This document shows positions 6,043-47,068 of a stretch of DNA of 64,000 bases, piece by piece; positions within the stretch are counted from its first letter, which is position 1, and each line of letters opens with the position of its first letter. A model generated the notes under the pieces. It was given only the letters and a program-made list of their open reading frames with translations, was not told the origin of the DNA and did not search any database. The stretch covers positions 2,752,440-2,816,439 of the forward strand of contig NZ_OZ255701.1 of assembly GCF_965276875.1 (NCBI RefSeq), in the 5' to 3' direction. Made by a program: the position numbers and the translations under genes. Source of the DNA: Lichenicoccus sp. Lineage in GTDB: Bacteria; Pseudomonadota; Alphaproteobacteria; Acetobacterales; Acetobacteraceae.

Positions 6043-8277
6043 TTAGCTGAAGGTCAGGCTGGTGTTCGGATCGGTCACCCCGAACAGCGCCAGCGACGTT
6101 CCGTCCACGAGATGGAAAATCGTGTTGCCGCCGCCGATTGTCTTTTGAACGTCCGCAGAGCTGTAGCCAAACAGCCTGATCTGATCGACACCGGGCCTGA
6201 AACCGTGCAGCAGGTCGAGCCCGCCGGAGGCACCGCGCACGACGTCGAACAGGACCGCGCCGCTGCCGAACGTCACGATCGCAGCACCGCTGCCCAGGAC
6301 GACCTGGCCGGGACCGGCGCCTTCGGCAAGGTTCATGGTGCCGCTGCCGGTAAAGACCAGGCTCGCGCCTGAGCCCGTGCTAATGGCCGAATGTCCGGAG
6401 CCGCCCGCGACCAGCATGTTGGCGGTCCGCGCCGTCACACCCAGGGTGCCGCTTCCGCCGATGATGGAGTCCGCACCCTTGCTGCTGCCGATCACATTCG
6501 TGTCGCCGCCGCCGGCGAAGATGGCGTCGCCATTCTGGGCGGTGATCGAATCGTGCTGACCGCCGCCCACTATGGTATCGCCGCCGCCGGTCCCGCCGAC
6601 CACGGTGTTGCTGCCGGAGCCGGTGAAGATCACGCTGCCGTTGGTGCCGCCAACGATGCTGGCGTTGCCGGCACCGCCGATGAGGAACTCCTTGCCCGAG
6701 CCTGCGACCAGCGCCGTGGTGCCGGAGGCCGCCCCGAACAGTTTGTCGCCGCCGGCGGCTCCGGTCAGGGTCGTGTTGCCGCCCGCGCCGATCAGGATGT
6801 TCCCGCCGGTGCGTCCGCCCTGGTAAACGCCGCCGCCGGCGCCGGCGAAGATCGTGGTCGCCCCCAGGCCGCCGGTCACGGTGCTGTCGCTCAGGCCACC
6901 GACGAAGGTGAGCGCACCGGCGCCCCCCTGTACCGAGAGGAACCCGGCAGGTGCCACGATGATTTCGGAAGCACTCCCCGCCTGCACCGTATCGGCGTCG
7001 TGCGCGACGTAGGTCTGGCTGCCGTTCAGATCGACCACGGAACCTGACGGTCCGGGTAGGCTCGATCCACTGAACGTCAGGGGTATCATCTTGGGCAGTG
7101 ACGAGATTTCGTGGGTTCCGGCAGCGGTTCCATCCGTGATCCACAGACCGTCATTACCCGCGGCATCGGAGCTGCTGAACACCAGCTTGCCGTCGTATGG
7201 CTGCAAGCCCTCGGCAGAGATACCATTGGCGCCTACCAAGAGTTGATAGGTGCCAGCCTGCGTTCCATCGCTGGTCCATAATCCCGAATTTCCCTTGTTC
7301 GAGACGTTAAAAAGAACCTTTCCCCCCAGTGCCACCGGTTCGCCATCGACGATGCTTCCCGCCGGACCGGTGACCAGCGCGTGCGTACCGGCATCGGTGC
7401 CGTCGGTCACGTAAAGGCCGATGGCAGAAATGAAGAATGCCTGGTTTCCCGCTACGGTGAGCCCCCCGATGTTCGACAGATAGGGGGGTCCGACCGGTTC
7501 TATCTTGCTGGTTCCGGCCGTGGTCCCGTCCGAACGCCACAGGCCATTATCGGTGCCGAACAGGGCCACGCCGTTCAACGAGACGGGCGCAACGGAGCCG
7601 ATGATGTTGTCAAAGCCGGGGACGCCGAGCGACTGCGTTCCCGAAGGCGTCCCGTCCGTCACCCAAAGCGATGATCCGAATGGGTCCAGGCCGGATTGGA
7701 TTTCGAATACAACCTTGCCGCTGGCAACGGCGGCATAGCCCGTCGGAGCCACAGACTGCGTGGCCGGTGTGAGCAGATGCGTGCCGGCGAGGGTGCCGTC
7801 CGAGGTCCACAAGCCGTAGACGCTGCTCGCGGCAGACACACCGTCGAAGAATAGTTTGCCCTCGACGGTCGCAAGATTGTCGGCCTTGACGCCTGCCAGG
7901 ATCTCGGTCGTGCCGGCGGCGGTGCCATCGGTGGTCCAGACGCTCGCATTGCCGTTATGGTCCAGCGCGGTGAACGCAGCCTTGCCACCAAAGGACGTGA
8001 GGTTTGCAAAGCTCACCGGAGCCTCGGCGCCGGCGCCTACGGGCACGATAACGGTGCCGACAGCCGTGCCGTCACTGCTCCACAGGACGGTCTGTCCGGC
8101 TGCGTTCTGGCCCAGGAAAAGCACGGTGGCACCCAGGCTGACAAACTCGGTAGGGTTGATCCCTTTCGCGGCGGACGCGCCTTGCGGCAGAAGCTCAACC
8201 GTGCCGACGCCATCGGAGACAAGGAGATTGACCCTGCTGCCAGCGTCTTCCGCGGCAAACAGAAAGCGTTCGCTCAT
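6043..8277 (-). CDS. ELWxxDGT-repeat (beta-propeller-like) protein with Gly-rich RTX-like C-terminal region
   Basis: GGGAG RBS precedes the ATG at 8277. There are eight spaced [LV][WY]x[ST]DGTxxGT repeats, then GGxGxD-like Gly/Asp-rich repeats. No N-terminal signal peptide is evident. Confidence 0.8.
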   Translation of the reverse strand: MSERFLFAAEDAGSRVNLLVSDGVGTVELLPQGASAAKGINPTEFVSLGATVLFLGQNAAGQTVLWSSDGTAVGTVIVPVGAGAEAPVSFANLTSFGGKAAFTALDHNGNASVWTTDGTAAGTTEILAGVKADNLATVEGKLFFDGVSAASSVYGLWTSDGTLAGTHLLTPATQSVAPTGYAAVASGKVVFEIQSGLDPFGSSLWVTDGTPSGTQSLGVPGFDNIIGSVAPVSLNGVALFGTDNGLWRSDGTTAGTSKIEPVGPPYLSNIGGLTVAGNQAFFISAIGLYVTDGTDAGTHALVTGPAGSIVDGEPVALGGKVLFNVSNKGNSGLWTSDGTQAGTYQLLVGANGISAEGLQPYDGKLVFSSSDAAGNDGLWITDGTAAGTHEISSLPKMIPLTFSGSSLPGPSGSVVDLNGSQTYVAHDADTVQAGSASEIIVAPAGFLSVQGGAGALTFVGGLSDSTVTGGLGATTIFAGAGGGVYQGGRTGGNILIGAGGNTTLTGAAGGDKLFGAASGTTALVAGSGKEFLIGGAGNASIVGGTNGSVIFTGSGSNTVVGGTGGGDTIVGGGQHDSITAQNGDAIFAGGGDTNVIGSSKGADSIIGGSGTLGVTARTANMLVAGGSGHSAISTGSGASLVFTGSGTMNLAEGAGPGQVVLGSGAAIVTFGSGAVLFDVVRGASGGLDLLHGFRPGVDQIRLFGYSSADVQKTIGGGNTIFHLVDGTSLALFGVTDPNTSLTFS

Positions 8278-8414
8278 TATCTTGGCTCCCGGGCCTACAC
8301 AGAAGGTTCGCAATTACTGCAGCATGATGCGACTACGCAATGATTATAACATGTTGCCTGATCATTGCAGGTTGCGCTCGACATTCCTGCAACGAAACAG
8401 TATGACGCAGCATC

Positions 8415-9155
8415 ATGGTGTGTTCCTTGCGTGCATCCTGGCTTCTACTGTCGCTCCTGATGCTCGCCGACTGTGCAAGCAAGCCCGTGCCGTTTCGCAT
8501 CGACCATGCCGGAACCCTGCCTCAAGCCAGCTATGCCGACTTCGATCGCCAGGCTGCCGCGGCGACCCCGCGCCTGAAGACTTTTGGCGCGGTTCCCAAG
8601 GACCTTCCTGAACCCTATTGGGTCTTTTCTTTTGAGGCCCCGCTCGATCCGGGCAGGGCGCCGTTGCAGATCGGACGCTTCAGCGGATCGGGAGAGATTG
8701 CAGCGCGCGTGGCAGCAAATCTGCCGCAACACCTTCAGCAGGCGCTGAGCGGGACGGGGCTGTTTAAGGTCGTCACGCGTTCGCCGATGCCGCACGCCTT
8801 TGTGCTGTGCGGCACGGTGACACGGGCCGACGAAGAGAACGGGCCGGGATTGGAAACCAATGACGGAACTCAGGTCGAGGCGATTCTCGTGCGCGACAAC
8901 GCCTTCTTCGGCGCCATTCAGATCAATGCGATCGAACTCGGATTCTCCCCGTTGTCCCTGGGAGCAACCTTGATCATGAACCTGGCGCAGGGGTCGAGGG
9001 CGAGTTTCGTCAGCGGAAAGTTCGCGGAGGTCTTCCAGGCGGCGGCGAAAGGCAGCCGGCGCGGACTGAGCACAGACTCCCTGAGCACCCGGTTCATGCG
9101 CATGCCGGCAGCACCTTCGCCTGTGCGGCAGGCAGCGGCGACGCCTCTACCTTGA
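8415..9155 (+). CDS. Hypothetical lipoprotein
   Basis: The N-terminus MVCSLRASWLLLSLLMLADC has a signal peptide plus a lipobox-like LADC. I recognise no family. Confidence 0.55.
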   Translation: MVCSLRASWLLLSLLMLADCASKPVPFRIDHAGTLPQASYADFDRQAAAATPRLKTFGAVPKDLPEPYWVFSFEAPLDPGRAPLQIGRFSGSGEIAARVAANLPQHLQQALSGTGLFKVVTRSPMPHAFVLCGTVTRADEENGPGLETNDGTQVEAILVRDNAFFGAIQINAIELGFSPLSLGATLIMNLAQGSRASFVSGKFAEVFQAAAKGSRRGLSTDSLSTRFMRMPAAPSPVRQAAATPLP

Positions 9156-9167
9156 CTGCAGCCTGCT

Positions 9168-10001
9168 TCAGCCGCGCGGATAAGCCGGGGCGGCGACGTC
9201 CTGCATTGATCTGGTGGTTCTGCCGTACGCGACATAGAGCGCGCCGCCGGTGAAGACAAGGGCGCCAACCAGGTTGCCGAGCGTCACCGGGATTTCGTTC
9301 CAGGCCCACCAGTCATAGAGCGTGACCTTGGCGCCGAACATCATGCCGACCGGGATCGCGAACATGTTGACCACGCAATGCTCGAAGCCCTGACTGACGA
9401 AGATGAAGATCGGCAGCCAGGCGCCGAGGATCTTGCCGGTCGTCGAGGTCGAGGCGAGCCCCATCACCGAGCCGAGGCTGACCATCCAGTTGCACAGGAT
9501 CGCCTTGACGAACACGGTCAGCATCCCCGCGGCGCCGAACGCCTCGTAGGCCGTGGTCTTGCTGACCGCGAGTGCCCGCAGTTTGGCGCCGATGACGCCG
9601 CCGGTGGTCTGGCCTGCGTCGGTCGCGGCGATCCAGAACAGCACCGCATAGATCAGCGCGCCGATCAGGTTGCCGGCGAACACCAGCGACCAGTTGCGCA
9701 GCATCGCCCCCGCGCCGATGCGGCCAGAAAACAGGCTGACCGGCATGATGCCGAAATTGCCGGTGAGAAGCTCCATGCCCAGCACCACGATCAGGGCGAA
9801 GCCGGCCGGGAACAGCAGCGCGCCGACGACGAACTGCCCGGTCTGGACGGCGAGCAGGAATGCCATTGAGGTGACGAAGGCGAGATAGGCACCAGCAAGT
9901 CCTGCGCGGACCAGGGTCTCGACCGCGGGCAACTCCGCCTTGATCACGCCGGACTCGATCATGTTGTCGAGCACGACGCCAGGCTTGACGTAATCGGACA
10001 T
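9168..10001 (-). CDS. Formate/nitrite transporter (FNT) family channel
   Basis: Six-TM protein with FNT-like segments (..GMELLTGNF.., ..FEHCVVNMF..). It lies 25 nt downstream of fdsD on the same strand. Confidence 0.9.
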   Translation of the reverse strand: MSDYVKPGVVLDNMIESGVIKAELPAVETLVRAGLAGAYLAFVTSMAFLLAVQTGQFVVGALLFPAGFALIVVLGMELLTGNFGIMPVSLFSGRIGAGAMLRNWSLVFAGNLIGALIYAVLFWIAATDAGQTTGGVIGAKLRALAVSKTTAYEAFGAAGMLTVFVKAILCNWMVSLGSVMGLASTSTTGKILGAWLPIFIFVSQGFEHCVVNMFAIPVGMMFGAKVTLYDWWAWNEIPVTLGNLVGALVFTGGALYVAYGRTTRSMQDVAAPAYPRG

Positions 10002-30314: not shown

Positions 30315-30956
30315 TCAACCGACACGGGCGTTCTCCCGACGTGCGCGCTCTTCATGGCCAGGGGTCGCCTCGGCGGCCTCCCACGGGTCGCGCCGGTCGA
30401 GACGCAGGCGCACATAGCCGCGCGGACTTGCGGGACCGCCATAACCGATTTCGCTCCAGGCGGTCGGGTGCGCGTAATAGGCGCTGACGATGTCGGGGAT
30501 CAGCCGGTTGTTGAAAAACGATGGGCCGGGCATGCCATCGAGGGCGGCGGCTTCAAGCGAGCCTGCTTCGAGCGCCTTGAGCAGCGCATCCTGCGCGTCG
30601 CCGGTGAGCGCATGGAACGGCTGGCCGTGTTGCGCCTGCGCTGCCTCGCGCAATGCCGCCAGCCCGCGTGTCCAGGCGACTCTCTGTTCGGGCAGTTCCG
30701 CGTGACGGTAGCCGTCATGCGCGTCGCTCAGCATCTTGTCGTCGACGTAAGAGGCGAGCGGTACCGGCGGCCGGTCGATGGGTTGCGGCACGATACGCGT
30801 GCACACCGCTTCCAGTGTCTGCCAGGCTTCGACGTCGAAGAAGCGCGGCTCACGTGGGATTGCCAGACGCTTGTCGATGACCCGACGCGTCTCATCGTTC
30901 CAGGATAGTCCGGCACGCTTGGCCAGCACGTCATAGCCTGGATAGTGTTCAGACAT
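30315..30956 (-). CDS. Gluconate 2-dehydrogenase subunit-3-family small subunit
   Basis: Starts at MSEHYPGYDV, overlapping the upstream stop by 8 nt. Its size and its position immediately upstream of the GMC flavoprotein fit the family. No obvious twin-arginine signal. Confidence 0.8.
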   Translation of the reverse strand: MSEHYPGYDVLAKRAGLSWNDETRRVIDKRLAIPREPRFFDVEAWQTLEAVCTRIVPQPIDRPPVPLASYVDDKMLSDAHDGYRHAELPEQRVAWTRGLAALREAAQAQHGQPFHALTGDAQDALLKALEAGSLEAAALDGMPGPSFFNNRLIPDIVSAYYAHPTAWSEIGYGGPASPRGYVRLRLDRRDPWEAAEATPGHEERARRENARVG

Positions 30957-31896
30957 CGGCGACGTCCTCCAGCAGGCGAAGGGCGGCCAGACCGACCAGA
31001 GCCAGGCCGGTGAAGGCAGGCGGTGCCGGAAGTGGCGGTCCATTGAGGACGTTCTGTCGCCAGTTGCGCCATCCGCCCATGTCCCGGCCGACGCCGAGCG
31101 CATGGAATCCCGTGCCGGCCAGCCCGAGGATTGCGGTGGCACGCAACCACCAGCGCGTCAAAGGACGTGGGCGTGGTGACGACACCGACGCCACGGCGGT
31201 CAGCAGGGCGGCCACCGGCGGCATCGTCACCGGCAGCAGCATGAACGGATCATGGAACTGCCCGCGGAAATGCAGCAACCCGGCCTCACCGACAGTGCCA
31301 AAGATGCCGGCACCGGTTACGACGCCGAGCACACGACCGGCTGGCAGACCCAGCACGACGGGCGCGGTGCCGGGCGGCGTATTGCGCACGCGTTCGGACA
31401 GAAAGCCAAGCAGGCCCGAGAGCATTAACGCCGCCGGGGCACCGGGCGGGGCGGAGTAGAACAGGTTCTGCCAGGAGAAGCCGCCTGGCCGTTTTGCGAT
31501 GTTGAACAGGTGAAAACCGGTGCCGACAAGGCCGGTCAGCGCAGTGCCGGCATAGATCACATCGCGGGCAGCGTGCGCGCCCACGCGCGTGTCCGCCAAG
31601 CCATGTGCGCTGACCGCGAGCGAAAAGCTCGACGTCACCAGCGGCGTAAACATCGCGGGATTATGGAACTGTCCGCGATAATGTTCGACTGCGCTGTCAA
31701 ATAGGACGGAGCCGGCGAGGGTCCCGGCGGCGCGGTTCAGACGACGAGCGGTTTGCACCGCGGCAGTACGGGATAGATCCGGCTTTACACTGCGCTTCGC
31801 CAGCCCGCGCGCCGCGAGCAGCAACGCACCCAAGGTGGCGCCACCGAGGCCGGCCAGGACGCCGGCGACGACGCCGTCCGGACGTTTGATATCCAT
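30949..31896 (-). CDS. Integral membrane protein with internal duplication and conserved His motifs
   Basis: About 8 hydrophobic segments. The two halves share EHYRGQFHNP / LHFRGQFHDP and GTGFH / GTGFH motifs, ~137 aa apart. I recognise no family. Confidence 0.75.
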   Translation of the reverse strand: MDIKRPDGVVAGVLAGLGGATLGALLLAARGLAKRSVKPDLSRTAAVQTARRLNRAAGTLAGSVLFDSAVEHYRGQFHNPAMFTPLVTSSFSLAVSAHGLADTRVGAHAARDVIYAGTALTGLVGTGFHLFNIAKRPGGFSWQNLFYSAPPGAPAALMLSGLLGFLSERVRNTPPGTAPVVLGLPAGRVLGVVTGAGIFGTVGEAGLLHFRGQFHDPFMLLPVTMPPVAALLTAVASVSSPRPRPLTRWWLRATAILGLAGTGFHALGVGRDMGGWRNWRQNVLNGPPLPAPPAFTGLALVGLAALRLLEDVADV

Positions 31897-34687: not shown

Positions 34688-34710
34688 CCATACGTCGTTT
34701 GACGCATACG
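34688..34710. promoter_or_regulatory. Candidate operator: CCATACGTC 9-mer plus GCATACG repeat upstream of the permease
   Basis: CCATACGTC (34688-34696) is identical to a 9-mer in the formamidase/kinase divergent region. A near-repeat GCATACG lies at 34704-34710. Confidence 0.3.
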
Positions 34711-34771: not shown

Positions 34772-36427
34772 ATGTCCGACATCGCTGCCGGCGCGCCGAA
34801 ACGGCGTGCGTTCAACAAACTGGTCAATAATCCGGTGCTCGAGGACTACTCGTTGCGCTACGCACCTAAGAGCTTTCGGACCTGGTCGGAATACGCGGTC
34901 GCCACCGCCGCCCTCGGCGGCATCGCCTATATGGCGGACCAGGCGATCGGCGGCTCGCTCGCCGTGCAGTTCGGCTTCACCAACGCCTTCTTCGGCATTC
35001 TCGCCGCCGCGGTGGTGATCTTCCTGACCGGTATTCCGATTGCGATCTACTGCGCGCGCTACAATGTCGACGTCGATCTGCTCACTCGCGGCGCCGGCTT
35101 CGGCTATCTTGGATCGACGCTCACGTCGGTGATCTACGCCTCCTTTACCTTCATCTTTTTTGCGCTCGAAGGGTCGATCATGGCCCAGGCGTTCCTGCTG
35201 TATTTCGGCATACCGCTCTGGGTCGGCTACGCGCTCGGTTCGCTGATCATCATCCCGCTCGTCGTGTTCGGCATGACCTTGCTCGCCAAGCTGCAGGTGT
35301 GGACACAGCCGCTCTGGCTGCTGATGCTGTTTACCCCACCGATCGCGGTCTTCATCGCCGATCCCCATGCCATCTCGCAATGGACGAGTTTTGCCGGTAC
35401 CTCGCCTTCTGGTGCCAACTTCAACTGGCTGCTGTTCGGCAGTGCCGCCGGCATCGCACTGTCCCTGATCGCGCAGATCGGCGAGCAGGCCGACTATCTC
35501 CGCTTCATGCCGGACCAGGTAAAATCCAACCGCACGAAATGGTGGATCGCGGTGCTCTGCGCGGGTCCGGGCTGGGTGATATTGGGCGCTGCCAAGCAAT
35601 TGATGGGATCGCTGTTCGCCTCCGTCGCGGTGGCGCACGGCACGCCACCGGCGCAGGCCAACGAGCCGATCCAGATGTATATCGCAAGCTACCACTACAT
35701 GTTTCCGATGGCGGTAACGCTCGCCGTCGCCACCTTCTTCGTCATTCTGTCGCAGATCAAGATCAACGTCACCAACGCCTATTCCGGCTCGCTGTCCTGG
35801 TCGAACTTCTTCTCGCGCCTGCTGCACGCCCATCCCGGGCGCGTAGTCTGGATCTTTCTCAATGTCGGCATCTCGCTGACCATGATGGAGCTGAACATGT
35901 TCAGCTTCCTCGGCAAGATCCTGGGCTTTTACTCGAACGTTGCAGTTGCCTGGATCGGGGCCGTGACCGCGGACCTCGTCATCATCAAGCCGCTGCTCAA
36001 GCTCGGCCCGCAATATATCGAGTTCAAGCGCGCCCATCTCTACAACTTCAATCCGGTCGGCTTCGGCGCCATGCTGTTCGCCTCCGCGGTCTCGATTGTC
36101 GCGTTCTTCGGCCTGCTCGGTCCGGCAGCACAGGCCTTTTCCGCCTTCATCGCCCTCGGTCTTGCCTTTGTCGCCGCACCGATCATCGCGATCGTAACCA
36201 AGGGCCGCTACTATCTCGCCCGTCCGCCGTTCAACGATGCCTCGGTGAGCCCGACCTTGTCCTGCTCGGCCTGCGGCTTTGATTACGAAAAGCAGGACAT
36301 GACGAACTGCCCGTTCCACCAGGGCACGATCTGCTCGCTGTGCTGTTCGCTCGAATCCTCCTGCGCGGACATGTGCAAGCCAGCCGTTCGCTCCACGGTC
36401 CCGCTGGAGGCGCCCAGCGCTGCGTGA
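34772..36427 (+). CDS. NCS1/APC-like permease (~12 TM) with C-terminal 8-Cys module
   Basis: GAGGAGAG RBS. The hydrophobic profile plus QIKINVTNAYSGSLSWSNFF resemble the purine-cytosine-permease type. The cytoplasmic tail is CSACGFDYEKQDMTNCPFHQGTICSLCCSLESSCADMCKP. Confidence 0.85.
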   Translation: MSDIAAGAPKRRAFNKLVNNPVLEDYSLRYAPKSFRTWSEYAVATAALGGIAYMADQAIGGSLAVQFGFTNAFFGILAAAVVIFLTGIPIAIYCARYNVDVDLLTRGAGFGYLGSTLTSVIYASFTFIFFALEGSIMAQAFLLYFGIPLWVGYALGSLIIIPLVVFGMTLLAKLQVWTQPLWLLMLFTPPIAVFIADPHAISQWTSFAGTSPSGANFNWLLFGSAAGIALSLIAQIGEQADYLRFMPDQVKSNRTKWWIAVLCAGPGWVILGAAKQLMGSLFASVAVAHGTPPAQANEPIQMYIASYHYMFPMAVTLAVATFFVILSQIKINVTNAYSGSLSWSNFFSRLLHAHPGRVVWIFLNVGISLTMMELNMFSFLGKILGFYSNVAVAWIGAVTADLVIIKPLLKLGPQYIEFKRAHLYNFNPVGFGAMLFASAVSIVAFFGLLGPAAQAFSAFIALGLAFVAAPIIAIVTKGRYYLARPPFNDASVSPTLSCSACGFDYEKQDMTNCPFHQGTICSLCCSLESSCADMCKPAVRSTVPLEAPSAA

Positions 36428-36529
36428 GATGGCCGCTGCATGAGATGGCCGCTGCATGAGGTGACGCGGTCGTGCAATTCCCCGGCGGCGGCAAAGCCGG
36501 CCGGGGATCTGCGTCTGAGCATCACGCCA

Positions 36530-36829
36530 TCAATGGCTGATCATCCACGGGCGTGCGCCAGGAAACGACTTGGCTGCGCCCGCTTGACCTTTTGGTTTGC
36601 AGCAACCGCATCCCGGCGCATGCGCACGCAATGGTGCGTGCGCACTGCGCTCGTTGGTCTCGAAAGCGCGGCGTCGGCTACCTGGCATGGCAGCAAACGA
36701 CGGTGCGGCGAGGCTACGCGGTGCCGAACTGCCGCATTCCGGACAGACTGCGGGTTGCGCGAAGTCCGCCATCGCTGCGGCCGCCTCGAACGGACCGCAG
36801 TCGGCGCATAAATAGTGATAGCTCGGCAT
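36530..36829 (-). CDS. fmdB: FmdB-family zinc-ribbon protein
   Basis: MPSYHYLCADCG...VCPECGS is the CxxC..CxxC FmdB signature. It lies 13 nt downstream of the formamidase. Confidence 0.8.
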   Translation of the reverse strand: MPSYHYLCADCGPFEAAAAMADFAQPAVCPECGSSAPRSLAAPSFAAMPGSRRRAFETNERSAHAPLRAHAPGCGCCKPKGQAGAAKSFPGARPWMISH

Positions 36830-36842
36830 CAGAGAGTCTGCA

Positions 36843-38075
36843 TCAAAGGTCTGGCGCCAGCGGCATGTCGATGCTGCCGTCGAGGAAGCGGGTCGGGCCG
36901 TTCGCACCAGGCGAGATGTCGAAGTCGAAGATCTCGGTCGGCAACCAGAGCGTCGCACAGGAATTCGGCACATCCACCACGCCGCTGATATGGCCCTGAA
37001 CCGGCGCCGTGCCGAGGATCGACAGGGCCTGCGCGCCGGAATAGCCGAAGTTCTTTAGGTAGGCGATCGCATTCAGGCAGGCCTGACGGTAGGCGACGTT
37101 GACGTCGAGGTAGTGCTGTGCACCGTGCTCGTCGACTGAGATGCCTTCAAAGATCAGATAGTCCTGATAGCGCGGCGTGACCTTGCTCGGCTTGAAGATC
37201 GGGTTGCGTATGCCGTATTTCGCCATGCCGTCCTTGATCACGCTGTCGACGCGCATGTGTATCCAGCCCGGCATTTCGATGGCGCCGCAGAAGGTGATCT
37301 CACCGTCGCCCTGGCTGAAATGCAGGTCCCCGACCGACAGTCCGGCCCCCTCGACATAGACCGGGAAATACACCCGCGCGCCGCGCGAGAGATCCTTGAT
37401 GTCGCAATTGCCGCCATGCTCGCGCGGCGGCACGGTGCGGGCACCCTCGGCAGCGGCGGCGTCGCGCGCCTCGCCCGACATCCGGCCCATGTGGGCGGTT
37501 GGCCCGAACGGCGGGTTGGCGAGACCCGGCACCCGGTCCGGATTGGTTGCGATCAGGCCGCGTTCGCGCGTGTTCCAGGTCTCCAGCAGCGGCTTGCTGG
37601 GCAGGCAGCCAATCAACCCGGGATGGATCAGTCCGGCGAACTCGACACAGGGGACATGGCGTGACCGGGTGAACATCCCGTTGATGTCCCAGATCGATTT
37701 CTGCGCCTGCGGAAAATGCTCGGTCAGGAAGCCGCCGCCGTTCTTCTTGGAAAAGAAGCCGTTGAAGCCCCAGGAGTTATGCGAGAACGCGCCAATATCG
37801 AGGAAGTCGACGACCAGCAGATCGCCGGGGCTGGCCCCCGCGACCCGGATCGGGCCACTGAGGAAATGCACGATCGACAGATCGATGTCGCGCACGTCCG
37901 AGGCGTCGTCGTTGTTCTTGATGAAGCCACCGGTCCAGTCGTAGCACTCGACGATGAAGTCATCGCCCGGCTTGACGGTCGCGACCATCGGGATGTCGGG
38001 GTGCCAGCGGTTATGCACCTTGTCGTTCTCGTAGGCCGACTGGCCGAGATCGACCTTGATCAGCGTCTCCGGCAT
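36843..38075 (-). CDS. fmdA: Formamidase (acetamidase/formamidase family)
   Basis: Starts MPETLIKVDL...NRWHPDIPMV. About 410 aa and collinear with FmdA-type formamidases (..HFLSGPI.V.GA.PGDLL.., ..GGNCDIKDL.., ..VGDLHFSQGDGEI..). Confidence 0.95.
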   Translation of the reverse strand: MPETLIKVDLGQSAYENDKVHNRWHPDIPMVATVKPGDDFIVECYDWTGGFIKNNDDASDVRDIDLSIVHFLSGPIRVAGASPGDLLVVDFLDIGAFSHNSWGFNGFFSKKNGGGFLTEHFPQAQKSIWDINGMFTRSRHVPCVEFAGLIHPGLIGCLPSKPLLETWNTRERGLIATNPDRVPGLANPPFGPTAHMGRMSGEARDAAAAEGARTVPPREHGGNCDIKDLSRGARVYFPVYVEGAGLSVGDLHFSQGDGEITFCGAIEMPGWIHMRVDSVIKDGMAKYGIRNPIFKPSKVTPRYQDYLIFEGISVDEHGAQHYLDVNVAYRQACLNAIAYLKNFGYSGAQALSILGTAPVQGHISGVVDVPNSCATLWLPTEIFDFDISPGANGPTRFLDGSIDMPLAPDL

Positions 38076-38127
38076 TTGCCCGCACCCCCCAAAAGAGGCC
38101 GATGACACATCCGTGGGGGCGCCACAT

Positions 38128-38149
38128 CCATACGTCATTCACCGTATGG
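38128..38149. promoter_or_regulatory. Candidate operator: inverted repeat CCATACG-N8-CGTATGG in the formamidase/kinase divergent region
   Basis: A perfect 7-bp inverted repeat. Its left arm, extended to CCATACGTC, equals the 9-mer upstream of the permease at 34688. Confidence 0.3.
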
Positions 38150-38196
38150 CAAAGCCCCGATGGACGCGGCGGCGGCCGTCGCGCAAGCTGCCTCGT

Positions 38197-41100
38197 ATGG
38201 CAGCAACGCAACGTCTCATCCCTTCGCGCCGGGAATATAATCGCTGGGTGGCGGACGAGACGCTCGAAGATTTCGCCCTGCGCTATACTCCGGCCTCGGC
38301 GCGGCGCTGGAGCGGCGGCGCCATCGCCAATACCGCAATGGGGTCGTCCTCATTCATGGCGTTGGAGGCGATCGGCGGCCTGATCACCTTGCGTTATGGT
38401 TTCGCTGTCGCCGCCCTCGCCATCCTCGTCAGCAGCCTGGTCATCTTCGCCACCGCCTGGCCGATCGCGTTCGCCTCGGCGCGGCGTGGCATCGACGTCG
38501 ACCTGCTGACCCGCGGCGCCGGCTTTGGCTATATCGGCTCGACCATCACCTCGCTGATCTACGCCGCCTTCACCTTCATCTTCTTCGCGCTCGAGGCCAC
38601 GATCTTCGCCGCCAGCCTGCAGGCCGCCTTCGGTCTGCCGGTGCAGCTCGGCGTTGTGCTGGCAGCCGTAATCGTGGTGCCGATGGTCACGCACGGCATT
38701 GCCTTCATCAATCGCTTTCAGCGCGTAACACAGCCGCTGTGGCTGGCGCTCACGGCGCTGGCGATCGCGGCGGTGCTGCTGCACGGCTCGGCGACGCTCG
38801 TCGCCTGGCGGCAGTTTCCCGGTCTTGCGCGCAGCGGCAGCAGGTTGGTGGACTTCGGGGCCGCTGCCTCGGTGATTGCCGCCCTGCTCGCTCAGGTCGG
38901 CGAGCAGGTGGACTACCTGCGCTTCCTCCCAGCACCCAATCCCGAGCAACGCTGGCGTTGGCACCTGGCCCTCCTGCTCGGCGGTCCCGGCTGGATCGTG
39001 CCGGGCGCGCTCAAGCTGTTCCTGGGCTCGCTGCTCGCAACCCTGGCCTTCAACGCCGGCGCGCCACCGATCCTCGCTGCACAGCCCGCGACGATGTATG
39101 CCGACGCCTTCGGCCTGCTCACCGAGCATCACGCCCTGGCGCTGGCGGCGACAACGCTGCTGATCGTCACCGCCCAGCTCAAGATCAATGTCACCAACGC
39201 CTATGCCGGCTCGATCGCCTGGTCGAACTTCTTCTCGCGCCTGACCCGGAGCCATCCCGGACGGGTGGTCTGGGTGGTGTTCAACGTCACGATTGCCGTG
39301 CTGCTGGTCGAACTCGGCATCTATCCCGCGATCGCCGCGGTGCTCGCGGGCTTCTCGGTCGTTGTCTGCGCCTGGGTCGGCGCGCTGGTCTCCGATCTGG
39401 TGCTGGTGCGCCCGCTGCGGCTGGCACCGCGCGTGAGCGACTTCAAGCGCGCGCATCTGTTCGACATCAATCCGGTCGGCATCGGCGCGATGGCCGCCGC
39501 CATCGGGCTGGGCATGCTGGCTTTGGCCGGCGGCTTTGGTGTGGTGGCACAGGCCTTCGCGCCATTCCTGGCGCTGGCGACTGCCCTGCTGGCCTGTCCG
39601 CCTTTGGCCCTGCTGACCGGCGGCCGGTTCTATCTTGCGCGCAAACCGCGCCGCAGCTGGGCCGATAAGGCGCCGGCCTGCCGGGTCTGCGGCGTCGGCT
39701 TCGCAGCACCCGACATGGCCTATTGCCCGGCCTATGGCGGCGCCATCTGTTCGCTTTGCTGCACGCTCGACGTACGCTGCGGCGATCTGTGCAAGCCGCA
39801 CGCCCGCACCGCCGCACAACTCTCCGCCCTGCTGCAAGGGCTGGTGCCACATCGCCTGCGCGGGCGGCTCGGGCAGGCGCTGCCGCGCTTCCTCGCGCAA
39901 TTCGCGGTTGCCTGCGTGCTGGTGGCGCTGCTGCTCGGCTCGGTCTATCTCCAGGCCGCCGGCGCCAATGCGGCGTTGCGCCTGTCGATGGCGCAGGCGC
40001 TGTGGCGCGCCTTCCTGGTGCTGTCCATCGTCGCGGGAATCGTCGTGTGGCTGCTGACCTTGGCGCAGGAGAGCAGGGGGGCGGCACTCGAGGAGAGCCG
40101 ACGGCAGACGGCGCTGCTCGAGGAGGAGATCGCAGCCCACGGCCGTACCGACGCCGACCTGCACCGCGCCAAGGGTGTCGCCGAGGCCGCCAACCTCGCC
40201 AAGAGCCGCTTCGTCGTCGGTGTGGCGCACGAGTTGCGCACGCCGCTCAACGCCGTCCTCGGTTACGCACAATTGCTCGAGTTCGACGCGGCAATCCCGG
40301 AGGGGCGGCGCGAGGCGGTGCGCACCATTCGGCGCGGCGGCGAGCATCTGGCGCGCCTGATCGAAGGCCTGCTCGACATCTCCAAGATCGAGTCCGGCCG
40401 TATCCAGATCGAGCGCCGACCGGTGCGGCTTGCCGAGTTCCTCAGCCAGATCGTCGACATGTTCCGCCTGCAGGCCGAGGCTAAGGGGATCGCCTTCCGC
40501 TTTGCGCCGGCCGCGTCGATGCCCGGCGTCGTGCGCATGGACGAGACCAGGCTGCGCCAGGTGCTGATCAACCTGCTGTCCAACGCCATCAAGTTCACCA
40601 GCCAGGGCGAGGTCGCGTTCGTCGTCACGCGTCGTGGCGAAGTCACCGAGTTCAGCGTCACCGACAGCGGCCCGGGAATCGCATCCCACGACTTCGAACG
40701 AATTTTCGAGCCCTTCGAGCGCCTGGCCGGCGCGCCCGCGCACCATAATCCGGGGATTGGCCTGGGCCTGACCATCTGCAAGCTGCTCACCACAGTGATG
40801 GGCGGCGAAATCCAGGTCGAGAGCACGCTGGGGCGCGGCAGCCGGTTTCGCGTCCGGCTGCTGCTCTCCATTGTCCCTGGAACCGCCGCCGCGGCACCGC
40901 GCCCGGCGATGCTGCGCGGCTATGCCGGACCGCGTCGCACCCTGGTCGCCGCCGACGACGACGCGGTGCACCGCGCTTTGCTCGGCGAGGCGCTGACCCC
41001 GCTCGGCTTCATGCTGCACGCGGTGCCCGATGCGGCCGGCTGCCTGCGTCTCGCCGCCGAGGCGCATGACGGCGGCATCGACGCCTTTTTGCTCGACGTC

Positions 41101-41541
41101 TCGATGCGCGCCCTCGACGGCCCGCAGATGGATGGCTGGCAAATCGCTCGACGCCTGCGCGAGAGCGGCTGGCGGGTGCCGATCATCGTGGTGTCGGCGC
41201 ATCCCGAGGAACTGTCGCCGGACAGTCCGCACGACGCCTTCCTGAGCAAGCCGATGAGCATCCCGGCCTTGCACGAGACGCTCGGGCGATTGCTGCGGCT
41301 GGACTGGATCGAGGCCGCCCCGACGACGGAGCCCGCCGAGGCCGCCATGCCGGTCCCGCCGCTCGACGAGCTGTGCCGACTCGCGCGCACCGGTCACGTG
41401 CGGGCACTCTCGACTCGCGTGGAGGCGTTGCACGCGGCAATGCCCGACGACGTACGCCTCAGCCGTCTCGCCGACGCGGTGCGCGGCTTTCGTCTTGACG
41501 AGGCGGAGGCGATCCTGGCCGAGCTCTCAGCAGGCGCCTGA
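38197..41541 (+). CDS. Hybrid sensor histidine kinase with N-terminal permease-paralogue sensor, 8-Cys module, HisKA-HATPase and REC
   Basis: The first ~500 aa are collinear with the permease at 34772, with long identical stretches. The 8-Cys module, extra TM segments, H-box VAHELRTPLN, N-box LLSNAIKFT, G-boxes and a receiver (..FLLDVSM..) follow. The ATG at 38197 is chosen because the N-terminal length then equals the paralogue's. An ATG at 38146 is the alternative. Confidence 0.9.
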   Translation: MAATQRLIPSRREYNRWVADETLEDFALRYTPASARRWSGGAIANTAMGSSSFMALEAIGGLITLRYGFAVAALAILVSSLVIFATAWPIAFASARRGIDVDLLTRGAGFGYIGSTITSLIYAAFTFIFFALEATIFAASLQAAFGLPVQLGVVLAAVIVVPMVTHGIAFINRFQRVTQPLWLALTALAIAAVLLHGSATLVAWRQFPGLARSGSRLVDFGAAASVIAALLAQVGEQVDYLRFLPAPNPEQRWRWHLALLLGGPGWIVPGALKLFLGSLLATLAFNAGAPPILAAQPATMYADAFGLLTEHHALALAATTLLIVTAQLKINVTNAYAGSIAWSNFFSRLTRSHPGRVVWVVFNVTIAVLLVELGIYPAIAAVLAGFSVVVCAWVGALVSDLVLVRPLRLAPRVSDFKRAHLFDINPVGIGAMAAAIGLGMLALAGGFGVVAQAFAPFLALATALLACPPLALLTGGRFYLARKPRRSWADKAPACRVCGVGFAAPDMAYCPAYGGAICSLCCTLDVRCGDLCKPHARTAAQLSALLQGLVPHRLRGRLGQALPRFLAQFAVACVLVALLLGSVYLQAAGANAALRLSMAQALWRAFLVLSIVAGIVVWLLTLAQESRGAALEESRRQTALLEEEIAAHGRTDADLHRAKGVAEAANLAKSRFVVGVAHELRTPLNAVLGYAQLLEFDAAIPEGRREAVRTIRRGGEHLARLIEGLLDISKIESGRIQIERRPVRLAEFLSQIVDMFRLQAEAKGIAFRFAPAASMPGVVRMDETRLRQVLINLLSNAIKFTSQGEVAFVVTRRGEVTEFSVTDSGPGIASHDFERIFEPFERLAGAPAHHNPGIGLGLTICKLLTTVMGGEIQVESTLGRGSRFRVRLLLSIVPGTAAAAPRPAMLRGYAGPRRTLVAADDDAVHRALLGEALTPLGFMLHAVPDAAGCLRLAAEAHDGGIDAFLLDVSMRALDGPQMDGWQIARRLRESGWRVPIIVVSAHPEELSPDSPHDAFLSKPMSIPALHETLGRLLRLDWIEAAPTTEPAEAAMPVPPLDELCRLARTGHVRALSTRVEALHAAMPDDVRLSRLADAVRGFRLDEAEAILAELSAGA

Positions 41542-41550
41542 GCCAGGAGC

Positions 41551-42414
41551 ATGGACGGCACCATCCTGATCGTCGACGACAGCCCCGACACGCTGGGCAT
41601 GCTCACCGCCGCCCTGGAGGCGGCGGGCTTCACCGTGCTGGTGTCGCTCTCCGGCGAGCGCGCACTCGAGATCGTGCATGCCGCGCGTCCGGACCTGGTG
41701 CTGATGGACGCGGTAATGCCCGAACTCGACGGCTTCGAGACCTGCCGCCGGCTGCGTCGCATCCCCGGCACCGCGACCCTGCCAGTGATCTTCATGACCG
41801 GGCTCGCCGATACCGACCACGTGATCCGCGGGCTGCAGGCCGGCGCCGTCGATTACGTGACCAAGCCGGTGGCGGTGCGCGAGATGATCGCCCGCATCGA
41901 GGTGCATATCGCTGCCGCCCGGATGATGCGCAGTGCCCGCGCCGCGATGGAGATGTCCGGGCACGCGCTGTTCGCGGTCAGCGACACGGGCGCGCTGCTC
42001 TGGGCGACGCCGCGCGCCGAGAGCCTGCTGGCGGCGGCCCGGCTTGAGGGCGCCCCGCTTGCCGAGACGCTTCGCCCGCTGCTCGCCGGCGAGGCGCCGC
42101 TCGGCACGTTGCAGCGCGACACGACCGAAATCGGCCGGGTCGGTGTGCTTGGACCCGACGAGACCCTGCTGCGTATCGAGACCACCCACGCCTCGCGCAC
42201 CGAGCAGCGACTGCGCGCCCGCCTGCCGGTAACGCCGCGCGAGTGCGAGGTGCTGCTCTGGCTCACCCGCGGCAAGACCAACCGCGACATCGCCGAAATC
42301 CTCGGCCTGCGTCCCCGCACCGTGAACAAGCATCTCGAACAGGCCTACGCCAAACTCGGCGTCGAGAACCGCGCCGCCGCCGTGGCGCTGACCCTGAACG
42401 CCTTGCGCGACTGA
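41551..42414 (+). CDS. Response regulator, REC - linker domain - LuxR/FixJ HTH
   Basis: REC (ILIVDDSP..LVLMDAVMPELDG..VDYVTKP) and a C-terminal HTH (TPRECEVLLWLTRGKTNRDIAEILGLRPRTVNKHLE). It lies 10 nt after the kinase. Confidence 0.9.
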   Translation: MDGTILIVDDSPDTLGMLTAALEAAGFTVLVSLSGERALEIVHAARPDLVLMDAVMPELDGFETCRRLRRIPGTATLPVIFMTGLADTDHVIRGLQAGAVDYVTKPVAVREMIARIEVHIAAARMMRSARAAMEMSGHALFAVSDTGALLWATPRAESLLAAARLEGAPLAETLRPLLAGEAPLGTLQRDTTEIGRVGVLGPDETLLRIETTHASRTEQRLRARLPVTPRECEVLLWLTRGKTNRDIAEILGLRPRTVNKHLEQAYAKLGVENRAAAVALTLNALRD

Positions 42415-45779: not shown

Positions 45780-46175
45780 TCAGTGCGAGACCCGGCAGGG
45801 GAAGACCTCCAACAGTCCCCTAATCACTAAATCGGCGGCCGGGCCATTCAACATATCAGGGTGGGCCATCGCATAACGCTGGAACGATAGAATGATCTGC
45901 CTTCCAGACGTTTTGGCCGGCAAGCAAATCCCTTGTCGTATAGTTGGAAGGCTTACCACATCGGCCACGGCATCGACGTAAGCCGTGCAAGCTCCCGACG
46001 CGTTTCCTTTGCAGAGTTCATAGAGCCGGTCCCCGCTCACAAACGCGTTTATTGTTGATGCTTGGGCACCGGCCGACAGCAGCCACGTTGCAGTCAGAAC
46101 ACCCGCGAGTTGCGCAAAGCGCTCTGTCGCATGGTAGGCGGATCGCCAATAAATCCGGCTAGGCTTCACGTTCAT
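45780..46175 (-). CDS. Rap1a/Tai-family (T6SS amidase-effector) immunity-like protein
   Basis: Signal peptide plus the pattern ..GDRLYELC....GACTAYVDAVADV......ICLP...SGRQI...FQRYAMAHPDML...AADLVIRGLLEVFPC. It sits at the edge of the lower-GC islet. Confidence 0.65.
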   Translation of the reverse strand: MNVKPSRIYWRSAYHATERFAQLAGVLTATWLLSAGAQASTINAFVSGDRLYELCKGNASGACTAYVDAVADVVSLPTIRQGICLPAKTSGRQIILSFQRYAMAHPDMLNGPAADLVIRGLLEVFPCRVSH

Positions 46176-46429
46176 AATGCCGCCTCACTGCTACCTAAAG
46201 GCTTATCCGCATTCGTTGCAAACTGAGTGGTCCTTTTGCATCTACTCTAACCCAAACGAAACGGATGGCTAGAGTGAAACCAAAAACTGTCCATATATTT
46301 TAGGCAAACGGCATGCAAATCTATGAGCTGGCAATGTGGCCGGTTTAAAATATGTCTCTCATAAAAGGGCGGCTCGCATTTTCTTGCCTCGTCATATATC
46401 CTGAGGGGAAAGCATGGAGCCGACGAGGT

Positions 46430-46639
46430 ATGACACGAAACATCATTAACCCGGAAGAGGGCGCGGAGTTGAAGCGTCTCTACATAGAGCACGCTACGGC
46501 GACAAGCTACGCTGTCGCTGTCCTTCGGGACATGGGCATGAATTCTCCTGAGTTTCGTGCGGCCGACGAAGCGGTTACTAAACTTTGGCCTCGTATTCGG
46601 CAGATTCTGGGCAACTCCGACCACCCGTGGACGGCTTAG
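46430..46639 (+). CDS. Small hypothetical protein
   Basis: A 69-aa ORF with plausible composition (MTRNIINPEEGAELKRLYIEH..) in lower-GC DNA. No homology recognised. Confidence 0.3.
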   Translation: MTRNIINPEEGAELKRLYIEHATATSYAVAVLRDMGMNSPEFRAADEAVTKLWPRIRQILGNSDHPWTA

Positions 46640-46792
46640 ATGTCTCCAAGGAGAGAAGCGCCGCGCCGACCTTATCGGCGGTAGCAGTCAGTCTCTGGCC
46701 GCAAGCGTCCCCAGTCTTTTGAGTTGCTTCCCGACAGACGGCTTTGCCGGGGTGTTTGACCGGGCATAACCCATCTATGCTATACATCCTTA

Positions 46793-47068
46793 ATGCAAAG
46801 CAGGGAGGAGTCTTTGATCAACTCGTCTTTCGGTATCGATCGACTGGTGACATGGTGCGGCGAGCAACATGCTAGCCACTGCAGGCAGGTGGAAATGCTC
46901 GAGAACGGCGAGTTGCGTACGCACAGCGAGCGGTGCAATGAAGAGCAACACGATACTTCGCAGGAATCTCTCAACCACGCGCGCCAAAAGGTAGCTGAGT
47001 TGGATCGTCTTTTGCAGGGCTTGTCTCCTGCTTCAATCCAGTCAGAGAAAGACGCACAGCGCCTATAG
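46793..47068 (+). CDS. Small hypothetical protein
   Basis: A 91-aa ORF in the lower-GC islet with plausible composition. No homology recognised. Confidence 0.25.
   Translation: MQSREESLINSSFGIDRLVTWCGEQHASHCRQVEMLENGELRTHSERCNEEQHDTSQESLNHARQKVAELDRLLQGLSPASIQSEKDAQRL

Follow-up and report, generated by a model that had tools for sequence, protein, structure and literature searches.

A formamidase locus of Lichenicoccus sp. with a predicted hybrid histidine kinase whose sensor domain is a paralogue of the neighbouring NCS1-like permease

In a stretch of 64,000 nucleotides from Lichenicoccus sp. (Acetobacteraceae; contig NZ_OZ255701.1, positions 2,752,440 to 2,816,439), hereafter called the window, five genes within 34.6-42.4 kb encode a stand-alone permease, a zinc-ribbon protein (FmdB), a formamidase (FmdA), a hybrid histidine kinase and a response regulator made of a receiver (REC) and a LuxR-type domain. 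An earlier sequence-only reading had described the kinase as a formamide sensor built on a complete permease copy, a "transceptor". From the analysis presented here we consider it probable that this is a utilisation locus for short-chain amides (the formamide and/or urea class) under a dedicated two-component system with a permease-derived sensor, acting by the mechanism proposed below.

FmdA is, at equivalog level, a predicted formamidase (EC 3.5.1.49), as it scores 738 bits against the NCBIfam formamidase equivalog FormamaseFmdA (NF045496; cutoff 500) and matches Pfam FmdA_AmdA at E 2e-177. FmdB matches Zn_ribbon_8 (PF09723) with 42.7 bits (cutoff 34.4, E 5.6e-11) and, partially, the NCBIfam model RPWMISH, and both identities given in the sequence-only reading therefore hold. 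The gap from fmdA to fmdB is 13 nt, and fmdB also lies behind fmdA in most related loci. The gene positions bear out the orientations claimed before: fmdB and fmdA are convergent with the permease gene and divergent from the kinase gene across an intergenic region of 121 nt, and the regulator gene, said to lie right behind the kinase gene, starts 9 nt after the kinase stop codon.

The kinase and the permease share more than a fold. By BLASTP the permease and the kinase open reading frame (ORF) have 244 identities in 541 positions (45%; 65% positives, 7 gaps, E 3e-150), in a collinear match from residue 9 to residue 547 that covers the first ~545 amino acids of the kinase and in which all the near-identical blocks quoted earlier are present. 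The kinase most likely starts at the ATG at 38197, giving 1114 amino acids in agreement with the homologue consensus M-x9-RR-x-YN-x-WV, while the source gene call (P0271) begins at a GTG 17 codons further in and gives 1097 amino acids; from the ATG at 38197, the common lead-in to the motif LED[YF][SA]LRY measures 22 residues in both proteins. Both shared regions also close, as had been noticed, with the same eight-cysteine (8-Cys) module, C-x2-C-x11-C-x7-C-x2-CC-x5-C-x3-C, which shows short beta-strands in both AlphaFold2 (AF2) models and none of whose eight Cys varies across 42 diverse fused proteins or across 26 aligned modules. When PDB and Pfam were searched with a profile of this module, the matches were generic CxxC zinc-finger knuckles only, none with a significant per-domain score, and a single-sequence phmmer search of PDB gave noise-level rubredoxin/FYVE matches to the Cys module only; we assume that the module binds metal.

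The nature of the shared membrane domain could not be read from the curated libraries. A Pfam-A hmmscan of the permease and of kinase residues 1-618 matched no family, Transp_cyt_pur (PF02133) included, even at E<=10, and an NCBIfam scan of the permease and the kinase N-terminus gave no match; the Transp_cyt_pur hidden Markov model (HMM) search proposed with the earlier reading thus came out negative, and support for the fold comes from profile and structure searches. A profile of 22 family members matched CodB (7qoa_A) at E 2.2e-8, with profile positions 18-258 aligned to CodB 5-235, that is to transmembrane (TM) helices TM1-TM6. Neither a single-sequence PDB search with the permease nor a PDB search with a profile of the C-terminal half (TM7-12) matched CodB, the latter leaving TM8 not alignable by sequence. 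The AF2 model of the permease (mean predicted local distance difference test, pLDDT, 84.9; predicted TM-score, pTM, 0.86) shows 12 membrane helices and then a small beta-rich Cys module, and in a Foldseek search against PDB its top five matches were CodB (7qoa) and the three states of Mhp1 (2jln, 4d1a and 2x79) at E about 2e-8 and target TM-scores of 0.65-0.78, with Nramp, APC, SSS and NSS structures ranking below. Taken together, the missing HMM match and the CodB profile and Foldseek matches point to an NCS1-like LeuT-fold protein, as had been proposed for the N-terminal domain, in a divergent family outside the curated libraries; source annotations, in fact, already use "purine-cytosine permease-like" for it.

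Beyond the Cys module the kinase matches HisKA (62.6 bits), HATPase_c (92 bits, E 4e-26) and Response_reg (37.8 bits, E 2e-9) in Pfam, all above cutoffs, and by this domain content, in agreement with what was read before, it is a predicted hybrid histidine kinase with HisKA, HATPase_c and receiver in one chain. The TM segments that had been placed past the Cys module appear as two helices in its AF2 model (pLDDT 80, pTM 0.58), the second running without a break into the dimerization and histidine phosphotransfer (DHp) helix. His678, the HisKA phospho-acceptor, lies on this helix of ~100 residues, and H678/E679 are nearly invariant among homologues. Since there are 12 TM helices before it, the 8-Cys module should be cytoplasmic, and the extra hairpin would bring the chain back to the cytoplasm. 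The 60-residue tail of the kinase is conserved as well, with the motif IG[HYF][VI]R, in which Gly1066 is invariant and the next residue varies between His, Tyr and Phe. We have considered this tail as an Hpt domain and rejected it, as it has no Pfam match and homologues have Tyr or Phe in place of its His. The region of about 28.7-46.6 kb that was examined showed no Hpt gene, and Hpt is present in 6 of 42 more distant fused relatives.

The regulator scores 101 bits for Response_reg (E 5e-29) and 61.8 bits for GerE (E 5e-17) and is, from these matches, a predicted response regulator of the NarL/FixJ (LuxR) type, presumed to bind palindromes. It carries an unusual conserved insert between REC and the LuxR helix-turn-helix (HTH); neither this insert nor the kinase tail has a Pfam match, and a PDB search with the whole regulator matched REC only. 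An orthologue of the regulator lies directly behind the kinase in most fused loci with proteins of ~1100 amino acids.

A candidate operator for this regulator was found upstream of the permease gene and between fmdA and the kinase gene. The 9-mer CCATACGTC occurs exactly twice in the window (mean 0.15 in shuffles, never 2), starting at 34688, 84 nt before the permease ATG, and at 38128 in the fmdA/kinase intergenic region, and both copies overlap an 18-bp palindrome, ATACGT-N6-ACGTAT (Table 1). When up to one mismatch is allowed, ATACG-N8-CGTAT has two sites only in the window and 25 matches in 1.6 Mb of related loci, 20 of which, from 18 genomes, lie just upstream of the kinase gene or, in one locus (L003), also of the permease gene; the consensus across related loci is ATACGTcaattgACGTAT. 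A position weight matrix built from 19 sites, all outside the window, scored 22.8 at operator 2 and 22.7 at operator 1, the next best score in the window being 5.0 and the maximum of 30 shuffles 17.8. A dyad of 18 bp lying ~60-75 nt before start codons suits a dimeric activator of the LuxR/NarL type, and the palindrome is a candidate for joining fmdAB, the kinase-regulator operon and the permease gene into one predicted regulon. In urease-linked loci a variant palindrome, GTACGCC-N4-GGCGTAC, lies ~125 nt before the urtA-like gene (L040 19049, L043 17953, L052 14461), and operator and regulator subclade seem to have diverged in step; Methylococcales loci have related half-sites.

Table 1. Genes, domains and candidate operators of the locus (window coordinates), with the segments of the AF2 model of the kinase (residues).
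Feature	Position	Strand	Details
Candidate operator 1, ATACGTCGTTTGACGCAT	34690..34707		Centre 73.5 nt upstream of permease ATG
Stand-alone NCS1-like permease	34772..36427	+	551 aa (amino acids); 12 predicted TM helices and C-terminal 8-Cys module
Permease 8-Cys module	36263-36376	+	Cys 498-535
fmdB, zinc-ribbon protein	36530..36829	-	99 aa; RPWMISH-type C-terminus; Pfam Zn_ribbon_8
fmdA, predicted formamidase	36843..38075	-	410 aa, counted from Met22 of longest ORF
Candidate operator 2, ATACGTCATTCACCGTAT	38130..38147		fmdA/kinase intergenic; 63.5 nt from fmdA ATG, 58.5 nt from kinase ATG
Kinase, NCS1-like 12-TM sensor domain	38197..39624	+	Residues 1-476; paralogue of permease
Kinase 8-Cys module	39679..39792	+	Cys 495, 498, 510, 518, 521, 522, 528, 532
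Kinase, two extra TM-region helices into HisKA	39877..40398	+	aa 561-588 and from aa 592; AF2 model, Pfam HisKA
Kinase, HATPase_c and receiver (REC)	40540..41280	+	Pfam
Kinase, C-terminal tail	41362..41541	+	Four short helices; AF2 helices 1056-1113
Response regulator, REC and LuxR/GerE HTH	41551..42414	+	287 aa; Pfam
Regulator insert	41920-42231	+	aa 125-225, ~100 aa, between REC and LuxR HTH
Kinase model, NCS1-like core	Residues 40-474		Helix pattern as in permease
Kinase model, 8-Cys module	Residues 495-532
Kinase model, further helix in TM region	Residues 561-588
Kinase model, single unbroken helix	Residues 592-695		Last TM, coiled coil, DHp helix with His678
Kinase model, ATPase domain	Residues 741-890
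Kinase model, receiver domain	Residues 906-1040
Kinase model, tail	Residues 1056-1113		Four short helices

The set of permease, fmdA, fmdB, kinase and LuxR-type regulator genes is conserved outside this strain, as the sequence-only reading would have it, and recurs across phyla with a shuffled order. In Acidihalobacter (L001) a permease-fmdA-fmdB operon is divergent from the kinase-regulator pair, in Acidiphilium (L002) the same five genes adjoin a urease operon, and the five-gene set is also present in a metagenome-assembled genome of the Beijerinckiaceae (L003). Leptolyngbya (L021; 3611-5188 minus and 6716-9907) has a fused sensor of ~930 amino acids and a divergent permease-fmdA-fmdB operon, a cyanobacterial version of the same layout. 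The stand-alone gene was found directly 5' of fmdA, in the same direction, in L001, L006, L007, L008 and L021, its bearers in this arrangement being Gammaproteobacteria, Actinobacteriota, Bacillota and cyanobacteria. In Streptomyces it follows right behind a Peripla_BP_5/6 (AmiC/UrtA-like) gene (L012 8514-9650 and similar), and no fmdA or kinase gene lies within 10 kb at these loci.

Elsewhere the permease gene gives way to other importers. Kinases of ~1120 amino acids with a REC-LuxR regulator are divergent from an ABC-fmdA-fmdB operon in Bradyrhizobium, Burkholderiales, Methylococcales and Pseudomonas; the operon comprises a substrate-binding protein (Peripla_BP_5/6), two permeases, two ATPases, fmdA and fmdB, as in the Bradyrhizobium locus L083, and several of these loci add a CN_hydrolase (aliphatic-amidase-like) gene. 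A sister kinase subclade adjoins urease and a Urt-like ABC transporter in Hydrogenophaga, Variovorax, Hylemonella and Pseudorhodoferax. From this gene content, the predicted importer is in most genomes an ABC transporter, not the NCS1-like permease. Of the 50 fused homologues, fmdA lies within 10 kb in 24 and ureC in about 7, and in about 6 there is within that distance a Urt-like ABC transporter or CN_hydrolase gene alone. The formamide circuit read from the window alone thus gains support as regards the amide class and not as regards formamide specifically, because kinase-regulator pairs also lie beside urease/urt and CN_hydrolase genes, and the ligand class would be small amides and/or urea rather than formamide alone. 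A search for ligand-specificity residues, comparing fmdA-linked with urease-linked kinases, yielded six conservative fixed differences only, which are confounded by phylogeny and uninformative.

The family to which the membrane domain belongs is large. An exhaustive phmmer search over 1.84 billion cluster representatives (50%-identity clusters) found 1,720 family clusters at E<=1e-3 and 413 at E<=1e-30, and most full-length 50%-identity clusters are of 800-1550 amino acids. In a Pfam census of 42 long members, HATPase_c was found in 28, HisKA in 27, REC in 20, PAS in about 11, GAF, GGDEF and Hpt in 6 each, EAL in 5 and SpoIIE in 3. Since dedicated sensor domains typically come with a variety of outputs, as this membrane module does, the module would be primarily a sensor, with the stand-alone permease as the minority form. 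A genome scan with one genome per species gave at least 600 pattern matches and at least 599 relatives confirmed by tblastn, and the 80 loci kept come from Proteobacteria, Actinobacteriota, cyanobacteria, Bacillota, Myxococcota and Campylobacterota.

A neighbour-joining tree was built from the 89 domains of 84 loci, namely the window and 83 related ones. The 39 stand-alone proteins make up a single clade within the 50 fused ones, under a midpoint rooting that does not fix the direction of evolution. The window permease clusters with the permeases of L001-L003, and the window kinase domain with the kinases of L002 and L003. Since kinase and permease group apart in this tree, the two are ancient paralogues kept together and not the outcome of a recent local duplication. 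The closest stand-alone homologues (67-97% identity) are almost all from acidophiles across phyla, of the genera Rhodopila, Acidiphilium, Acidocella, Acidithiobacillus, Acidihalobacter, Acidiferrobacter and Ca. Velthaea, an unusually high cross-phylum conservation which suggests either horizontal spread or a strong constraint linked to low pH.

Fused and stand-alone domains can be told apart by seven alignment positions at which they are fixed differently: 52 (Ser in fused, Ala in stand-alone forms), 53 (Phe and Tyr), 56 (Leu and Asp), 134 (Ala and Gly), 171 (Ile and Leu), 337 of the fused or 338 of the stand-alone forms (Ala and Ser) and 341 or 342 (again Ala and Ser). In the profile alignment, positions 49-56 correspond to CodB Gly29-Ser36, with G49 at CodB Gly29, and the class-specific positions of TM1 align to the Gly29/Phe32/Ser34 breakpoint. 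The Na2 site of CodB is formed by the carbonyls of this TM1 breakpoint together with TM8 Asn275, Thr278 and Thr279, and Asn282 bridges TM8 to TM1 (PMC9379551). The stand-alone clade would accordingly have Asp, Ser and Ser, all polar, at the expected binding place of a coupling ion or proton, the fused forms having Leu, Ala and Ala there, and perhaps the coupling site in the sensors has been altered or lost. By these TM1/TM8 substitutions the fused form is more likely a receptor than a true transceptor, and it may not transport.

The mechanism that we propose builds on the paralogy, fold, domain order, synteny and operator conservation described above, and from these we infer what the ligand is, which way regulation runs, how phosphate is passed on and whether the sensor has lost transport. 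The hybrid kinase would read its signal with the N-terminal 12-TM NCS1-like domain, derived from a small-amide permease: a ligand bound at the bundle/hash interface would shift the conformation of the sensor domain, and the shift would pass through the cytoplasmic 8-Cys module and the two-helix hairpin into the continuous helix that includes the DHp segment with His678, altering autophosphorylation. The phosphate would then reach the REC-LuxR regulator, a dimer of which would bind ATACGT-N6-ACGTAT and switch on fmdA-fmdB, the operon of kinase and regulator itself and the gene of the stand-alone permease. This permease would be the actual importer, filling in this acidophile lineage the place that a Urt-like ABC transporter has in neutrophilic relatives, and the fused domain would most likely act as a receptor that binds the ligand, has a changed ion-coupling site and does not transport efficiently. 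More broadly, and tentatively, since we put its chances somewhat short of even, the 12-TM NCS1-like domain with its 8-Cys module may represent an undescribed, widespread receptor class for urea and small amides, which would share its origin with a formamide/urea permease, or descend from one, would have given up normal cation coupling and would have been joined to histidine kinases, c-di-GMP enzymes and PP2C phosphatases, with the Cys module as a metal-binding transducer.

As for the name "transceptor", the TM1/TM8 substitutions and the many outputs are indirect hints that lean against transport by the sensor. If the NCS1-like domain still transported amide and the activity of the kinase reported flux or the transport cycle, as proposed for CbrA and histidine, it would be understandable that the fused domain keeps all 12 helices and nearly all family-invariant polar residues (D25, D100, D102, R106, E133, D239/241, R242/244, N331/332, N334/335, R348/349), and that the kinase is found without a stand-alone paralogue in many genomes. 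Yet the class-specific change of D56, S338 and S342 to Leu, Ala and Ala falls on TM1 and TM8, the loci without a paralogue have a full ABC importer, and the module also drives GGDEF, EAL and SpoIIE outputs, as dedicated receptor domains do, which makes a transporting sensor rather unlikely. The retention of both paralogues in the window and in L001, L002, L003 and L021, each with the unusual cytoplasmic 8-Cys module, might also speak for a co-sensing pair, in which permease and kinase sensor interact as hetero-oligomers or through their Cys modules and the kinase reads the activity of the permease, like DcuS/DctA. Such pairing seems improbable to us, as most sampled kinase-bearing genomes have no stand-alone copy nearby and most stand-alone copies (Streptomyces, Acidithiobacillus) have no kinase nearby; since each often occurs without the other in its vicinity, the two can work independently.

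Perhaps the signal is not an amide at all. Eight invariant Cys within ~38 residues, without known relative, could form a metal, Fe-S or redox sensor, or the kinase could report nitrogen status or pH, with the permease-like domain mainly as a scaffold; the almost exclusively acidophile origin of the closest stand-alone homologues and the zinc-ribbon nature of FmdB itself would agree with this. We attach little probability to it, however, because ~55 membrane-domain positions are invariant across 42 diverse proteins, beyond what a scaffold needs, the linkage is specifically to amide/urea hydrolases and importers, and the Cys module is found in the stand-alone form too. It is also conceivable that the neighbourhood is coincidental, the kinase-regulator pair controlling other genes while fmdAB and the permease gene are under general nitrogen control only. 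A consensus sigma-70 scan of 34.5-42.6 kb detected no promoter, and for the fmd genes of Methylophilus the published work speaks of no more than induction by amides and urea, repression by ammonia and FmdB as putative regulator (PMC10781810). Nonetheless, the linkage holds across Alpha-, Beta- and Gammaproteobacteria despite changes in gene order, and the palindrome is confined to the relevant intergenic regions, so we hold a chance association to be highly improbable.

Several points weigh against the amide/urea system with a permease-derived receptor that we favour. About a quarter of the fused homologues are without an amide or urea gene in the 10 kb around them (several of these are on short contigs), and the family adjoins formamidase, urease and aliphatic-amidase-like genes, which makes formamide no more than a guess from the nearest genes. 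That the kinase may control fmdA is suggested by synteny and by the candidate operator. Phosphate is proposed to reach the regulator, yet the kinase has a REC domain without Hpt, and the 8-Cys module, the proposed transducer, is also present in the supposed plain transporter. As for ion coupling, the TM8 motif N335-x-x-S338-x-x-x-S342 matches CodB N275/T278/N282 in spacing, a register set by spacing only, and next to the position of the TM1 Asp of the stand-alone forms the fused ones have an invariant Glu, by which coupling may be altered and not lost.

The surroundings of the five genes look unrelated to them and encode a GMC oxidoreductase, a TPP enzyme, an SMP-30 lactonase, a TonB-dependent receptor and an NMT1/THI5-like protein; an ORF of 315 amino acids between the GMC oxidoreductase and TPP enzyme genes (30949-31896, minus) has no Pfam match. 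A Rap1a-like gene (type VI secretion system immunity) lies at 45780-46175, with G+C falling nearby from ~0.66 to 0.54 (46000-47000), and together these may mark the border of an acquired island. Two tandem copies of the 16-nt unit TGAGATGGCCGCTGCA (36425-36456) begin at the permease stop codon, with a further TGAG behind, and between the convergent permease and fmdB genes lies a GC-rich hairpin (CCCCGGC...GCCGGGG, 36480-36506) which could be a bidirectional terminator, although it has no T-run and was not flagged by the consensus scan. The count of intrinsic terminators found by scanning 34.5-42.6 kb was not above that in shuffles.

The sensing of urea and short-chain amides is poorly known outside UreR, AmiC/AmiR and general Ntr control. 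AmiC/AmiR of P. aeruginosa governs an amide-responsive amidase operon, AmiC being a cytoplasmic Peripla_BP_5 amide binder that acts on an antiterminator, and UreI/AmiS of H. pylori are six-helix channels that provide a membrane pathway for small amides and urea in acid-exposed bacteria. The present locus resembles these in its proposed amide-responsive control and dedicated membrane pathway, yet neither of them is two-component or of LeuT fold. A 2024 review of formamide lists no sensor (PMC10781810), and the literature on formamide/urea two-component systems and on NCS1-kinase fusions yielded no characterisation of such a circuit, which agrees with the earlier impression that none had been characterised; a 2026 Ectopseudomonas genome note lists the synteny fmdA-urtABCDE-hybrid histidine kinase-LuxR without comment on the sensor (PMC13296017). 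The locus therefore offers a concrete, widely conserved candidate with sensor kinase, regulator, 18-bp operator and target regulon and, if the proposal is true, it would be the first dedicated urea/formamide sensor kinase family. Moreover, processes with formamide as the nitrogen source could profit from a formamide-inducible switch and from a secondary formamide importer.

Among amide systems the closest is that of Methylophilus methylotrophus, whose fmdCAB-fmdDEF genes combine fmdA-fmdB with a dedicated importer and are induced by amides and urea (PMC10781810). The ABC-fmdA-fmdB operons beside the kinase in Bradyrhizobium and Burkholderiales resemble its fmdDEF/fmdAB; for Methylophilus, however, no two-component regulator or NCS1-type permease has been described, and FmdB is the sole proposed regulator. 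On the side of the permease, CodB and Mhp1 are the best structural matches and have 12 TM helices likewise, and for CodB there is profile homology over TM1-TM6. Unlike CodB, Mhp1 and MetT, the family described here has no Transp_cyt_pur match, carries the extra C-terminal 8-Cys module and would take a one-carbon amide or urea as substrate. Characterised NCS1 proteins carry N-heterocycles, MetT with metformin being the first exception (PMC13390362), and NCS1 carriers would, if our reading is true, gain one-carbon amides as a substrate class. Neither Pfam nor NCBIfam has a model for the membrane family or for its 8-Cys module. To our knowledge, no NCS1 member has been reported fused to signalling domains.

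Sensor kinases with an N-terminal SLC5/SSS domain are known in CbrA and CrbS/MxtR (PMC6591292, PMC5715377), and the present kinase shares with them a complete LeuT-fold transporter domain placed N-terminal to a histidine kinase, a cognate regulator and an association with nutrient-use genes. It differs in having an NCS1-like and not an SSS domain (SSS, PF00474, and STAC have no Pfam match in the kinase, and SSS structures rank well below NCS1 in Foldseek), in an 8-Cys module and hairpin leading straight into the DHp instead of a STAC/PAS linker, and in a REC-LuxR regulator with amide/urea hydrolases as predicted targets. In Ks-Amt5 and Sd-Amt1, Amt modules are fused to a histidine kinase or GGDEF (PMC5764959, PMC11152129), and in a 2021 review of sensor kinases Ks-Amt5 is the one transporter fusion cited (PMC8534201). 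Here too the fold of a transporter for nitrogen compounds would be reused as a receptor with alternative outputs, although Amt is an unrelated trimeric channel-like fold with another ligand, and the system described here has a stand-alone paralogue within the same predicted regulon. The Amt domain of Ks-Amt5 binds ammonium and barely transports it (PMC5764959, PMC8534201), and by analogy the fused sensors would bind their ligand and barely transport. The kinase may thus work like the CbrA and Ks-Amt5 classes, but it is a member of neither, and NCS1 would be an apparent third independent transporter fold, after SSS and Amt, to be repurposed as a signalling receptor. With matched transporter and receptor paralogues in one locus, the changes that accompany such a conversion can be studied directly. 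The system is an uncharacterised, broadly distributed form of the transporter-fused sensor kinases exemplified by CbrA, CrbS and Ks-Amt5, to which it adds a conserved operator, a continuous TM-to-DHp helix, an 8-Cys module without known relative and the TM1/TM8 substitutions.

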